From NCBI RefSeq assembly GCF_009931435.1, contig NZ_CP043414.1: a stretch of DNA of 64,000 bases. One strand, written 5' to 3'. The stretch is from Escherichia coli (GTDB lineage: Bacteria > Pseudomonadota > Gammaproteobacteria > Enterobacterales > Enterobacteriaceae). The first letter of the stretch is position 1; each line of letters opens with the position of its first letter. A program made the position numbers. Shown here one piece after another: positions 21,001 to 30,000 of this stretch.

Positions 21001-24000
21001 ATTTTTATCTTTTATTTTATTTACAGTTTCAATGCAATCAGCGACAAGTTGGTGTGGATTTAGATTCTTCAGATATGGTCTTATGATCTTTCCCTTGCTT
21101 AATAAATAGCATGTATAAGATTCGGAAAGTCCAGCATCTATTTTGTACATCATTATTCTAGATAAGGATGTGAGAAATGCCTTGTTATCATTAGCAGCCA
21201 TATATGCCAGTCCGAGTTCAGCCTCTGCGGCTTTACATGAAAAATAGCTAAGTGAACACGCTTTTCGTCCCTCTTGGGTACTGGCTGATATTAGTGCCCA
21301 TAATATTGCCTTGTCTGCCAAATCCAACTCTCTCTGAAATTGGTTTACAGTAACTGCATTCGCAGAAATAGAGAAAAAAAGCACAATTGTTAATAACCTT
21401 GCCATATTTCTAGTCCGTCACTGTTAATGTGTTATCTGGCTCTGAAAATATTAGCTCATTTAATTTTTGCATGTCATTAGATGAACCAGTTATACAACCC
21501 TCGGAACAGAATCGAGGTCCTAAAGATGGACCAAAAGCGTTTAAACAACTATGTATTAAAAATCCATCACGATTATACGTTTCTGTATTTGCTGACGGTA
21601 CTAAACGTATACCATTAGGTTTTCTATTAGTTGCTCCAGGACCATTAACATTCCAGGTCCATACCCCTTGAGGTATTGGGCCTCTATTTTGTAAGTGTGT
21701 ACAACCAGGATTATTTTTACATTGCATATTATTACCATTATTACCAGAGGCGACTGAAATAGTAAGCACACCATAAGAATTATCATCACCTGGTATATCT
21801 GAAACACACGAAAGCATACCTAAAGTTATGCTGTATAAACAGGTGGCTAATCCCAAGGGGATCGATTCCAGAAATCGGGTTCAAAGGATACTGATAAAAA
21901 TTCCACCTACCTTCCAGCCCAATCGGAGCCTGAGTGTTATACCGCCCCTGCTGCGGTTAATGTTACCGATAATAGTTATAGTACAGCCCTGATTCATCAT
22001 CATACTACTGCTGCGGCAGTCTGATGAATTATTGCTTTTACGGATTCTCCTTATTCTTCCTTCTATCCATTCGCTTTAGCTTTAGCTTTAGCTTTTTGAG
22101 CTCTTGAAGTTTGCTCTTTGCATCAATATTACCGTTATTTACAGCGAATTCCATCCAATAAATAGCTTTATTCAAATTATAATATTCTGATAATATTGGA
22201 TTTGTATCCGATAAAAAAACTCCATAATTAAACTGCGCTGTAACATTCCCCTGAGATGCTGATCTTTCTAAGTATCGCAATTGTTTGTAAATGTTATTTT
22301 TAGTAAAGCAGTAATATTGATATAGTCGAAATGATGCCTCTGAATCACCATGTTGTGATTTATACTTCAGTTTCATCAACTTTTCTTCACTTAAATCATA
22401 GGTCATTGCTGTAGACCCCATCATACTTTCGTTTTGTTTTATTTTCACATCAGCACCATGCAATTGAAAAATAAAAGAGAAATAAAAAAATAGTAACAAG
22501 CATGCTTTCATACATCTACAACCTATCTTATATCACTGGGTTTTTCTGGCGTACCTTGCATATTAGAAATGGGGTGCCCAGATGGCCCATATGTTATCCA
22601 ATTACCAAGGTCTTTTGTTGTTATAGCCATAAGATCCTTATTTGAATTAAGGTTCGTTGGTGCTGTTAGCACTGTATCCATTTTTAACTTACCATTAGTT
22701 CCTCGCCCCACCACGTCCATAGCGTGTCAGGTCCTATTACATTTGTATGTAACTCTTTAGCTAATTGGCTAGCAAATGAATTTTGTCCTTTACCTGTATT
22801 ACAAGAAAATAACCAAACTGTCATCCCATCTTTATAATTCCCATCAAATTTAATTAGATATGCTAGATCTTTAGCTGTCATGATACTGCGCGTTGCGGAT
22901 TCAATAGATGTGGGGGTACCATGCCCCCCGATTGTGAAAACGCCTGGGATATTAATCTCATCAGCTACAGAATGGATAAGATCACTTTCGGGGTATAAAT
23001 TTATATCAACCAAACCTTGCGGATCTACATTTATGACCGGATCCAACGGATACTGATAAAAATTCCATCCCCCCTTCAGCCCAATTGGATCCTGAGTGAT
23101 ATACCGCCCCTGCAGCGGGTCATAATAGCGGTGGCGGTTGTAATACAGGCCGGACTCCTCATCATACTGCTGCCCCGGCAGCCGGATGAGCTGCTGCAGT
23201 TGATGCGGGTTCTCTTCATTCAGCAGGTTGCCCCATTCATCATATTCTGCGTACCACGCTGTTGCCCCTTCCGTGCTGACAAGCGCCAGGGGCAGACCGC
23301 GATGGTCGCAGTGGTACAGGTGAATTTTTCGCGCCGGCGTGTACACCGGGTCCATCTGGTTTTGCATCTGCGTCACCGTCAGGCCGCACGATGCCAGCCA
23401 GCGGCGGCTTTCCTCACTCACCCGGTCAGCCAGGATTTCACTTTCCAGCCGGTCGAGCATCTGCACCGTGCCGGCGGGAATACCCCACTGTGCATAGGCA
23501 ACTCACGCTATGAACGCTTCAGCTTATCAATAGCGGAAGTTATAATTTCATTGTCATCAAACTTGTACAACATAGTATCTAAAACAGGAAGTAGCGTTTT
23601 ATCACCTAATTCACCCGCAGCTTCAATGATATCATCATAAACAGTATTTTTTTTTAACTCATCGCATAAAACAGATAAAACCCTTTTATCTTTTCTGTAG
23701 GAAAGTCCGATTATTGCTTCAATACGGACTTCCTCATTTTTATCCTGAAGCATCTCCACAAAACAATCCCTAATATCACTATTATCATATTTATTGATAT
23801 TTATTGCAAATGCGGCCCAGTTTCTGACATCTCCATTTGGATCTTTTAACAGATTAATCAATAGTGGAATTGTTGCTTTATCATTGATAACAGAAATAGC
23901 AAATGCTGTAGCACGTCTGACATTAGTCGATTTATCAAAAGCAGTAATTTGAGATTGTTCTACTATTTTAGGTGAATAAATTGGGTTTTTCTTGCATCGC

Positions 24001-27000: not shown

Positions 27001-30000
27001 AGGCCGCACGATGCCAGCCAGCGGCGGCTTTCCTCACTCACCCGGTCAGCCAGGATTTCACTTTCCAGCCGGTCGGGCATCTGCACCAGCACCGGCGGGA
27101 ACACCACATGGCCACCGTCTTCACCGCCGGACTGCTGAAGAGCGTCCGCCAGGCTGCGGCGCTGCGTTTTCGCCAGCTCACCGGTGGCGGTTTCAACTCT
27201 GATGAGTGGTGCGAAGCTCCCCGGCTGATAAACCGTCTGGATGCGGGTTCTGTCGTTCTGTATCGTGGTCAGCCGGTCGCCGTCCCAGCCGTACCAGGTC
27301 ACTTCCGGTTTCCGTGACAGCGACATCCAGCCCGTCAGGTCCCGTTCACGCCGCCACACCCGTTTTGCCACCCTGCGGCCCAGCGGGTCGTAAAGATAGC
27401 GACTTTCGACCAGCGGCTCTGCATATTGTGTCCGCGTGTAGTGCACCAGCCGGTGCCGGCTGTCGTAATGGTACCGGTGAGTCCGCTCATCATCCGTGCG
27501 GATAACCCCTTCCGGGATGAGGTCGGTTTTCTCTGTCAGCCTGCCGTGACGGTCATACCGGTAAAGATAGTGCGCGTCACGGGCGATACGGTTATCCGGC
27601 CACATGCTGAGGGTGCTGTCCGGGTGCAGCTCCGGGTCGGGCAGGCGGTTACCTGCCGGGTCCGTGGCATACGGGATGCGGATATCCAGATTCGCTGCGG
27701 TGGTGTGAACGCCGGTCAGCCTGCCGGTGGTGCTGTAGCTGTAACTCCGGGTCTGGCGCGGGCTGCTGATGCGAATGAGTTCGCCGTTGTCGTTCCAGGT
27801 GTAATCGCGGTCATACTGCAGGCTGTTCAGGTGCTGGCTCTGTAACTGCCCGGCAGGGGTGTAAGCGGTGGTGAGTTCATAACGGCCGAAGCTGCGCAGC
27901 GTTTCCCGGTGCAGGCGGTCGCGGGTGAAATCCACCAGCGGTGTGTCGCCGAGTTTCATCCCTGCCAGGTAACCACTGCCATAAGTCAGCCATTCCACGG
28001 CGGGCAGGCTGTCCGGTATACAGCGGTTCGCCAGCCCCTGCGCGTTGTACGCATGTCTGGTTTCATGCTGCCAGAGCAGTGCTTCCGTCTGCGGGTGATG
28101 CACCGTCTGGCGCTCACCGGTCAGGCGGCCTTTCTCATCATACCCGTAATGCACCGTCACCCGGTGCCCTTCGCTGAGATGGCTGATGCCTGTCAGCCAG
28201 CCGCGTTCGTCGTACCGCCACTGTTCTGCGGTTTCACCATTCACCGTTCGCTGCGTGATGCGGTCTGCTTCGTCATAGTGCCAGTGGGTGACCAGTCCCT
28301 CATCCTCGCTGCGGATAAGTTTGCCGGTCAGGTCGTGGTGATAACGCTGTGTGCGGCCGTCAAAGCCGGTTTCCTGTATCAGCCGGTCGAGTACATCGTA
28401 ACGGAAGGTGGTGTGGCTGCCGTTTTCGTTTGTCAGGCGGATGACCCGTCCTGCAGCATCGTATTCCATACTGCGGGTCAGCCCGCCCTGCGTGGTACGG
28501 ACGGCCTTTCCCCACGCATCGTACTGTGCCCCGTATCTGCTGCCGTCCGGGGCAATGACGGTGGTCAGGTCACCGGCGGCGTTGTATTCATACCGCGTTT
28601 CATGGCCCTGCGTGTCTTTCACCGCAATTAACTGTCCATGGCTGTCGTATGCGCGGCACTGGCTCAGGCCTTCCTCGCGGTGCACCGCCGTCATCTGCCC
28701 GAAGCGGTCATGGTCATAACGGGTCTGGTAGCCGGAACAGTCGGTGAAGGTCAGCAACTGACCGTAACGGCTCCACGTCATGGTTTTCCGGCTGCCGGTG
28801 GCATCTTCCGTTGCGCAGGGGAAGTCACTGTGTGGATTATCATAACGGTAGCGGATGATATCGCCGTCAGGGGCAGTTTCCTGAATCAGACGGCCGGATT
28901 CATCATATTCCCGGCGTATTTCCAGCCCGTCAGGCCCGGTGGCTGACGTTAACTGGTTGTGGTGGTTATAGTAAAACGCCGATGCCCTGCCATCCGGCGT
29001 GGTGATGCGCGTGATGAGTCCCGTCACCACATCCGGGCTGTATTCTGTTGTCCGGCCTGCGGCATCCGTCTGTGTCCTGAGCCTGCCCACCGCGTCAAAC
29101 TGACTCTGCGTGACGCTGCCGTCCGCGTGTTCCTTTTTCACCACCCGCTTCAGCCCGCCTTCGCCTGCGGTATGCAGGACTTCATGGCGGTCCAGGCTGT
29201 CGGTGATGGTGATGCGGTCTTTCTCATACTGATACGTGTAGCTTAAGCCTGCCGGGTTTAGCTGTTCTGTCACCCGCCCGTCGCTGTCGTAACGGTAACG
29301 GATTTCCGGCCGGCCCGTGTGACGGTGCGCCACCATCCGGCCCCGGTATTTATCATCGTAAGTAAAGCTGCGCACCTGTGTATTGCTGCGGTCATACACC
29401 GCCGCCAGTTCGCCGCGCGGCGTCCAGCCATAGCGCACCAGCGGCGTGGCTGGCAGGTTGTCCGGGTATTCCGGGTCGTGCGTCAGCCACACGGCAGACA
29501 GACGGATACCGTTGTCCCGGCCATATTCCGTGTAGTCCGGCAGGGTATCAGGAAAAGCGGACTGTTCCGCCCCGCCGGAAGAGGCCTGCTGCCGGGCCTC
29601 TTCTGCCCGCTGCGCCTGCGTGGTCAGTGCCAGCCGGAAGTGACGCCCGGCACCATCCGTCACGCCGGTGATTTCGCCGCTGAATTCACCGGCGGCTTCG
29701 CGGTGAAACGTCTGTGTGCGCCCGAAGCGGTCCACCAGCCCGGTCAGTACCCGGTACGGCGGCAGCGGCGCGGGCAGCACCTCATCCGCCTCCGGCACCC
29801 GCTCACACCAGCCGAGTACCCACCACGGCCCCTGCGGACTGTTCGTCGCCAGATAACGATGCGGACTCAGGCGAAGCTCTTCCGGCAGCGCCTGCCAGAG
29901 TGCGGCCAGCCGGTGACCTTCATCCAGTCTCAGGACGCCGCCGCGCACCAGCCAGAGTGACTCGCTGCGGCTGTAACCGTCCTCACCGGGAAACAGGTGC

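Follow-up and report, generated by a model that had tools for sequence, protein, structure and literature searches.

Gene content of the RhsA element

The window, a stretch of 64,000 nucleotides of Escherichia coli DNA (contig NZ_CP043414.1), carries the E. coli RhsA element, a polymorphic-toxin locus at the yibF-yibH site (Jackson's 'position 10'). Its genes and core fragments, all on the minus strand, are ordered as a main rhs gene with an RhsC-type tip and ybfB; orphan 1 with an Ntox34 tip and yibA; orphan 2 (yibJ) and yibG; and a decayed core remnant, a Tlde1-domain tip and an Imm57 gene. The initial annotation had correctly recognised the full gene, orphan 1, yibJ and the decayed remnant, and had placed them to within about 30 nt.

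The main gene (26178-30371) occupies the rhsA chromosomal position and encodes 1397 aa, with residues 1-1247 matching positions 1-1261 of the NCBIfam RHS_core profile NF041261 at 2618 bits (cutoff 2000). Pfam searches of this protein assign eleven RHS_repeat units, an N-terminal DUF6531 and RHS (PF03527), and no PAAR family; TIGR03696 covers residues 1170-1247 and the PxxxxDPxGL motif residues 1238-1247. At this locus the upstream neighbour is yibF, and no vgrG or T6SS genes adjoin the main gene. The motif is followed by the tip CT-C (26178-26630), a cysteine-rich sequence of 150 aa that is collinear with K-12 rhsC and corresponds to the K-12 RhsC tip. The stop codon of the main gene is overlapped by ybfB (25852-26178; 108 aa), which presumably confers immunity to CT-C and is annotated as YbfB in a matching genome. 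The main core has a GC content of 62%, compared with 41% for CT-C and 31% for ybfB. The presence of the RhsC tip and ybfB on the main gene at the rhsA site had gone unmentioned in the initial annotation. A gene 99% identical to the main rhs gene is named rhsC by PGAP in strain 2020CK-00188.

Orphan 1 is an open frame of about 485 codons (24371-25825) that contains no stop in the window or in any other locus examined; its first ATG, GTG or TTG is a GTG at 25579, and PGAP annotates it as 'missing N-terminus'. Its tip, which extends for 130 aa after a DPLGL motif, is Ntox34 (PF15606, E = 3.8e-43) and corresponds to the K-12 RhsA tip. The adjacent yibA (23508-24365) matches Pfam HEAT_2 and HEAT and is the HEAT-repeat immunity gene for this tip; the RhsA C-terminal region is reported to be neutralised by yibA (Vlazny and Hill, 1995, cited by PMC3150448). 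Orphan 2 (22523-23466) is a frameshifted pseudogene, marked 'frameshifted' by PGAP and also a pseudogene in K-12, whose tip belongs to no known toxin family and is split between the ORFs 22684-23466 and 22523-22720. It is followed by yibG (22038-22511), which Pfam and annotation describe as Sel1/TPR-like and which presumably provides immunity to the yibJ tip. Neither CT-C nor YbfB nor the yibJ tip matched a Pfam or NCBIfam family.

The last core fragment (21847-22035) is a remnant with three in-frame stops and 99.2% identity to the yibS region of K-12. A derivation from the RhsD/E core subfamily was considered and rejected, as its identity to K-12 rhsD and rhsE is not higher (74-79%). The Tlde1-domain tip ORF (21410-21856; 148 aa from a TTG; PF10908, 35.6 bits, cutoff 30.1) is displaced by 1 nt from the frame of the remnant's DPLGI motif at about 21863-21849. 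In L004 and XH990, Tlde1-tip alleles are intact and in frame. No full-length Rhs protein with a Tlde1 tip was present among 20 database matches, all of 248 aa or shorter, which is weak evidence given that 40 candidates were listed. Next to this tip, an intact Imm57 immunity gene (20884-21405; 173 aa; PF15596, E = 1.4e-44) is present, and the distal end of the element is formed by an ISAs1 / H-repeat transposase remnant (K-12 yibU; 20493-20722) with a 78% match to K-12 ybfL/ybfD, annotated by PGAP as 'ISAs1 family transposase, frameshifted'. In the window, none of the four predicted immunity ORFs is disrupted. A scan for promoters and terminators before the orphan immunity genes returned 21 hits against 15.5 +/- 3.7 in shuffled sequence, which is not above chance.

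The core-end repeat family

The 3' end of the Rhs core occurs in four direct copies on the minus strand, at 26628-27677, 24761-25810, 23021-23490 and 21847-22035, with lengths of about 1050, 1050, 470 and 180 nt from the main gene to the remnant. Self-BLASTN of 20500-30500 aligned the copy of orphan 1 with that of the main gene over 1050 nt without gaps (95.4% identity, E = 0; 48 differing positions; an exact run of 244 nt). The orphan 2 copy matched orphan 1 over 471 nt (23021-23490 against 24774-25244; 94.7%) and the main gene over 468 nt (23021-23487 against 26641-27108; 93.2%), with exact runs of up to 82-94 nt. For the remnant, 181 nt aligned with the main gene (21847-22027 against 26630-26809; 79.0%, E = 1e-38), identities to the other two copies were 76-78% (E = 1e-30 to 1e-32) and exact runs reached 22 nt or less. 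A separate repeat search returned the same family, with spacings of 1162, 1753 and 1867 nt. Both searches thus bear out the four copies that had been proposed within 21857-27676, and the extended identity between the segments expected from a self-alignment is present.

All four copies align at their 3' ends and terminate at the PxxxxDPxGL boundary between core and tip. In the main gene, the copy comprises the last 1050 nt of the core and ends at the motif (26660-26631), and the corresponding motif ends lie at 24764 in orphan 1 and 23011 in orphan 2. The downstream fragments contain only the 3' part of the core, on the strand of the main gene, and their ORF-encoded parts correspond to RHS_core profile positions 991-1261 (orphan 1) and 1111-1261 (orphan 2). 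The description of the copies as nested holds only in core coordinates, where the shorter ones are 3'-anchored subsets; physically, they are dispersed direct repeats. The DNA that separates them is unrelated and low in GC (29-41% in tips and immunity genes, 58-62% in cores), and the tips are mutually unrelated, pairing with their downstream ORFs as no-family tip/YbfB, Ntox34/HEAT, no-family tip/Sel1-like and Tlde1/Imm57 according to Pfam.

Related arrays in K-12 and other genomes

The K-12 RhsA element (rhsA-yibA-yibJ-yibG-yibS/yibW/yibV-yibU) lies at the same site with the same flanks (yibF on one side; yibH, yibI and mtlA on the other) and runs collinear with the window (about 96% identity), sharing the Ntox34/yibA, yibJ/yibG and remnant/Tlde1/Imm57 modules as well as the ISAs1 remnant. 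It contains three core-end copies and carries the Ntox34 tip on its main gene, whereas in the window this tip is on an orphan; the window has exactly one additional repeat period of 1867 bp, with the RhsC tip and ybfB. In addition, Imm57 is full length in the window (173 aa) and shorter in K-12 (yibV, 336 nt). The K-12 RhsC element (rhsC-ybfB-ybfO-ybfC) has the same tip, ybfB, ybfB-to-core-fragment junction and 1050-nt fragment as the window, and the window from 30489 to 24768 is collinear with the K-12 rhsC-ybfB-ybfO core. It is located, however, at another chromosomal site (kdpA-phr), and there the ybfO tip comes after the 1050-nt fragment, in place of the Ntox34 of the window. Both tips therefore occur on full-length genes elsewhere, Ntox34 on K-12 rhsA and CT-C on K-12 rhsC. 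For the placing of crossovers, K-12 rhsA, rhsC and ybfO served as proxy donors, with few informative sites. Judged by these proxies, the main core resembles rhsA until about 26800 and rhsC thereafter, which places the left switch to rhsC-like sequence near 26800; from there downwards, informative sites are 187 C-type and 1 A-type. The right crossover inside orphan 1 is not placeable, as informative sites are too few and the cores are mosaic.

The junction from ybfB to the 1050-nt fragment (25811-25851 in the window) does not vary among eight loci from three chromosomal sites, with five different tips behind it, and the junction from yibA to the 470-nt fragment is identical in six loci with three different tips. 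Other genomes have the block of CT-C, ybfB and the ybfB junction at kdpA-phr and priA-metJ as well. Alternative arrays at rhsA or sister sites include those of L004-type, XH990 and MT102 (the last with rhsC-ybfB-orphan Ntox34-yibA at kdpA-phr), both shorter and longer arrays occur at the rhsA site, and strain 2020CK-00188 contains the CT-C/ybfB module twice. A simple deletion joining orphan 1 to the remnant of a window-like array was rejected as the source of the L004-type array, whose core end is intact, in frame and different from the remnant at many positions. The four-copy allele was found in one of 5426 complete RefSeq genomes and in one GenBank genome. Its rarity, which is no proof, favours a derived state; the last event could have inserted the additional period into an allele like that of K-12, or such an allele could instead be a deletion.

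Probable displacement of toxin tips by recombination

The rhsA array is established biology, and its four-copy allele is rare without being new in kind. It very probably consists of the footprints of C-terminal displacement by homologous recombination at rhsA, which would still be recombination substrates. A single full-length Rhs gene encodes the conserved YD-repeat core; under this model, its last about 150 residues past PxxxxDPxGL would form an exchangeable toxin tip with a small cognate immunity gene next to it, and the three downstream core-end copies would be traces of earlier tip replacements. A new cassette, made up of a tip with its immunity gene and a short piece of core, would recombine into the core and displace the previous tip downstream, which would retain only the stretch of core, of 1050, 470 or about 180 nt, that had been used as homology arm. 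Since displacement is successive, the minus-strand order would read from newest to oldest with increasing decay. The newest arrival here would be the RhsC tip with ybfB, which may have demoted the K-12-type RhsA tip (Ntox34 and yibA) to orphan 1. The shared ybfB and yibA junctions fit C-terminal displacement, a model for which tip sharing between positions 10 and 5 has been named (Jackson, 2009; PMC2935791), and the switching between main gene and orphan described for Salmonella, where 522 bp at 95% identity were sufficient (Koskiniemi, 2014; PMC3967940). Alleles in nature are seen to share these junctions and to differ by whole periods; the toxicity of the tips and the immunity conferred by the downstream ORFs are presumed.

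Similar arrangements have been described in other systems. In Salmonella Typhimurium LT2 (PMC3967940), a main rhs gene is followed by an rhs-CT orphan that has no initiation or export signals; the two have a core-end repeat in common (about 95% identity), and recombination joins the main core to the orphan tip. LT2 has one orphan with a 522-bp repeat inside a T6SS island, whereas the window has three (1050, 470 and 180 nt), no adjacent T6SS genes and switching that is predicted. Displacement arrays such as Serratia marcescens SMA1610-1616 and E. coli position 4 (PMC2935791) have serial direct core repeats of varying length with dissimilar low-GC tips and, as in the window, distal members degraded by frameshifts or stops and tips common to several loci; compared with these, the window presents a clade I locus with three orphans. 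The orphan cdiA-CT/cdiI arrays of CDI systems (Poole et al., 2011; PMC3150448) likewise consist of tip and immunity modules that keep an upstream conserved coding stretch, but belong to another delivery family (CdiA/CdiB two-partner secretion) and have a VENN motif where Rhs has DPxGL.

Long similar repeats would be substrates for RecA-type homologous recombination, and the proposal that these repeats allow toxin switching stands for the main gene and orphan 1, the only credible functional switch partner. Recombination between their 1050-nt copies would delete or excise exactly 1867 bp, the single period by which K-12 differs, and would restore a K-12-type gene with the Ntox34 tip; we infer that such events may take place in this strain today. 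The proposal does not extend to the other two copies. The DNA of orphan 2 is competent for recombination, yet its frameshifted tip means that a fusion would probably yield a dead toxin, and the low identity, short exact runs, three stops and 1-nt tip shift of the remnant make it no realistic switching substrate.

A different reading is that the orphan modules are kept mainly for immunity genes against the toxins of neighbours, with the core-end repeats as inert scars. The intact state of all four immunity ORFs argues for it, as do the breakage of two of the three orphan toxin parts (the frameshift in the yibJ tip; the stops and 1-nt shift at the remnant) and the occurrence of the Tlde1 tip on fragments only, never on full-length Rhs, among the 20 database matches listed. 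Inert scars are nevertheless difficult to reconcile with the open frame of orphan 1 in every locus examined, with natural alleles that differ by whole periods and with the switching seen experimentally in Salmonella; moreover, immunity genes decay too, as seen in the internal stop of yibA in XH990 and the frameshift of Imm57 in 2020CK-00188. As the main account this reading is rather unlikely, and it complements displacement instead of excluding it. Copying of the rhs 3' end in place, several times, with tips diverging by mutation, would explain direct repeats on one strand and close together, but is highly improbable: the tips belong to different families without detectable similarity, tip and immunity GC lies about 20-30 points under that of the core, the CT-C/ybfB/junction block recurs identically at kdpA-phr and priA-metJ, and full-length genes elsewhere carry the same tips. 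A mis-join of rhsA and rhsC in a short-read assembly is scarcely conceivable, even though Rhs cores are multi-copy (median of 7 places per genome) and ybfB is frequently on tiny contigs, because two independent complete genomes contain the whole arrangement, bounded on either side by unique flanks, at 99.2-99.4% identity, and the 48 differences between the 1050-nt copies exclude a collapsed or duplicated read pile.

Building on the displacement model, we tentatively propose that each tip and immunity gene form a self-contained cassette with a fixed core arm, of 1050 nt for ybfB, 470 nt for yibA and about 180 nt for yibG. Such cassettes might excise as a small circle through recombination between main gene and orphan (1867 bp for CT-C/ybfB) and return, with a single crossover, to any clade I rhs core, whether at yibF-yibH, kdpA-phr or priA-metJ. 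Junctions that are the same across strains and sites, with a fixed arm per immunity gene and varied tips, are as this model predicts.

For assembly and typing of this strain, contig breaks at the repeats are likely, and the gene at the rhsA site receives the automatic name rhsC. The collapse of the repeats in short-read assemblies that had been anticipated is not what the data suggest: of 542 assembly blocks with the exact YbfB protein, 324 place it on a contig of less than 2 kb, which points indirectly to contigs breaking at the repeats instead. If true, the cassette model would make Jackson's hypothetical circular intermediate directly detectable in this strain. The locus itself provides a clean, fully annotated example of how an Rhs toxin repertoire is rebuilt by homologous recombination.

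Four core ends at the rhsA locus

The flanking genes of the array (mtlA, yibI and yibH on one side; yibF, selA and selB on the other) and its collinearity identify the region as the E. coli rhsA locus on the minus strand. The main rhs gene (26178-30371, minus strand) encodes 1397 aa, of which residues 1-1247 match the NCBIfam RHS_core equivalog with a score of 2618 bits, above the cutoff of 2000, and Pfam reports RHS repeats, DUF6531 and RHS. No vgrG adjoins this gene. Its 150-aa tip (CT-C), the exchangeable C-terminal part, and the following ybfB (25852-26178, minus strand) match the K-12 RhsC tip and immunity gene, not those of RhsA. 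Elsewhere in the window, near the mtl operon, a 1517-aa ORF (7658-12211, minus strand) matches several models of trimeric autotransporter adhesins (Ata, EmaA, YadA and BimA types), each time below the curated cutoff, and is probably a UpaG/EhaG-like adhesin.

The initial annotation described four nested copies of the Rhs core 3' end at this locus and proposed a self-alignment as the check. Self-BLASTN of window 20500-30500 revealed extended identity among all four segments: 24761-25810 aligns gap-free with 26628-27677 across 1050 nt at 95.4% identity, 23021-23490 aligns with each long copy over about 470 nt at 93-95%, and 21847-22027 aligns with the other three over about 150-180 nt at 76-79% (E = 1e-30 to 1e-38). 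A separate repeat search recovered these four members as one family, their starts spaced 1162, 1753 and 1867 nt apart. The coordinates given initially are accurate. On the minus strand, the copies are all direct repeats and share one end, the PxxxxDPxGL motif of the Rhs core, which ends at 26631, 24764 and 23011 and is represented in the remnant by DPLGI near 21863-21849. They are nested in core coordinates, but physically dispersed with unrelated DNA between them. Antisense to the two long copies lie two 188-aa ORFs (24884-25450 and 26751-27317, plus strand), which are most likely incidental to the GC-rich repeated core and not genes.

Each copy downstream of the main gene leads into a different module, all on the minus strand. 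Orphan 1 (about 25825 to 24371) is an open frame of ~485 codons ending in the tip that RhsA has in K-12, Ntox34 (Pfam, E = 3.8e-43), and is followed by the HEAT-repeat gene yibA. The tip of orphan 2, yibJ, is divided between two frames; PGAP annotates it as frameshifted, its K-12 counterpart is a pseudogene, and the Sel1-like yibG comes next. The fourth copy is a remnant with three in-frame stops. Downstream of it, a Tlde1-domain ORF (21410-21856; 35.6 bits, cutoff 30.1) lies 1 nt out of frame relative to DPLGI and is followed by an intact Imm57 gene, and an ISAs1/H-repeat remnant (20493-20722) closes the element. All 20 database hits to the Tlde1-domain tip were short or partial (at most 248 aa) and none was on a full-length Rhs protein; some of these relatives belong to Rhs fragments from Paraburkholderia and Ralstonia.

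Recombination potential of the repeats

In the most likely mechanism, the main gene would supply the conserved shell together with any export signals it carries, the residues beyond DPxGL would form the toxin and the following ORF the antidote. New cassettes would enter via homologous recombination in the core, displacing the earlier tip downstream, and the array would therefore run from newest to oldest with increasing decay. Tip toxicity, immunity-gene function and the delivery route are what we infer for these modules; the RhsA tip and yibA form the only pair with reported experimental support (PMC3150448).

The repeats had also been put forward as substrates for toxin switching, which holds to a different degree for each copy. 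The main gene and orphan 1 share 1050 nt at 95.4% identity, with an exact run of 244 nt inside it; the shared length exceeds the 522 bp at 95% identity that sufficed for switching in Salmonella LT2 (PMC3967940); their recombination would remove CT-C and ybfB and leave a K-12-type gene. With orphan 2 (93% identity over 468 nt, exact runs of at most 82 nt), recombination is feasible at the DNA level but would join a frameshifted tip. Between any copy and the remnant, exact runs reach at most 22 nt; an exchange is unlikely and its product would be out of frame. For orphan 2 and the remnant, the data are compatible with a reading in which orphans chiefly keep a store of immunity genes; this reading complements cassette entry and displacement.

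Shared junctions in other arrays

The CT-C/ybfB module was found in 2778 genomes and is present twice in 24 of these; strain 2020CK-00188 carries it at both the rhsA site and the priA/rpmE-metJ site. Its surroundings vary. At the rhsA site, an array typified by comparison locus L004 (at least 10 complete genomes) comprises the main gene, CT-C, ybfB, a 1050-nt core, an in-frame Tlde1 tip and Imm57, and that of XH990 consists of ybfB, an orphan RhsB-type tip, yhhH, yibA (a pseudogene), a 470-nt core, an in-frame Tlde1 tip and Imm57. At the rhsC site of MT102, rhsC is followed by ybfB, an Ntox34 orphan, yibA, an orphan DUF4329 tip and yhhH. Immunity genes decay too: an internal stop interrupts yibA in XH990 (8775-9617 of that locus), where the Ntox34 tip is absent, and Imm57, intact in the window, is frameshifted in 2020CK-00188 (L003, 3385-3905). 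In WL297 (CP128613.1), the main core lacks ~2 kb internally at about 6054-6062, the alignment skipping from window 30169 to 28125; no rhs gene is called there, and the main gene is truncated with ybfB and the downstream orphan retained.

The junction of ybfB with its core fragment, and the fragment length, do not vary among eight loci spread over three chromosomal sites except for a 4-nt indel; five different tips follow, with the frame open every time. Likewise, six loci have one and the same junction between yibA and the 470-nt fragment, with three different tips behind it. The indel, ATTA, lies just past the ybfB stop (window 25848-25851) and defines two allele groups: it is absent from the window, L004, L005, L008 and L009 and present in K-12, XH990 and MT102 (L002, L010 and L011), and could be used as a cassette-lineage marker. 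Local duplication followed by divergence in place would also yield direct repeats, but the unrelated tip families, the contrast in GC content between cores (58-62%) and tips with immunity genes (29-41%), and the occurrence of the same junctions at other sites contradict it. The shared junctions and fragment lengths therefore indicate that a core arm of fixed length accompanies each tip-plus-immunity unit. This pattern would be expected from a circular intermediate, the model of Jackson et al. (2009; PMC2935791), if it carried a core fragment and integrated by a single crossover, and also from a cassette with core homology on both flanks.

Rarity of the four-copy allele

At the K-12 rhsA locus, one core end aligns with copies 1 and 2 of the window alike (26628-27677 and 24761-25810), and the locus matches the window on either side of one 1867-bp difference, exactly one repeat period. 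The K-12 rhsC-ybfB-ybfO core is collinear with window 30489-24768; at sites distinguishing K-12 rhsA from rhsC, the main core follows rhsA as far as about 26800 and rhsC beyond. The four-copy allele is rare: a 10.1-kb query matched end to end in one of 5426 complete RefSeq genomes (2020CK-00188, 99.4%), and a second genome was found in GenBank (OZ038830.1, 99.4%). Both differ in sequence from the window, so the arrangement is genuine and not tied to any one assembly; an assembly artefact is contradicted by its presence in these two complete, independent genomes and by 48 positions at which the two long copies differ. Differences from 2020CK-00188, the closest relative, across 24750-30372 are clustered (for example, 10 in 27500-27749, 8 in 28750-28999 and none across about 25250-27499), a patchiness that suggests gene conversion among Rhs cores.

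Collapse of the repeats had been expected in short-read assemblies. In 324 of 542 assembly blocks, the contig bearing the exact YbfB protein is under 2 kb long, as expected for a unique segment of 817 nt with core repeats on both sides; this indirectly supports breakage at the repeats rather than collapse as such.

The RhsA element, orphan tips and their origin by C-terminal displacement, tip sharing between loci and main-orphan switching are already published or annotated, and Jackson et al. (2009; PMC2935791) noted that positions 10 and 5 share tips. The four-copy allele represents a rare form of a known locus, and the finding is correct and ordinary. The fixed-length arms and shared junctions provide one modestly useful lead, by which the circular-cassette model becomes testable by PCR.
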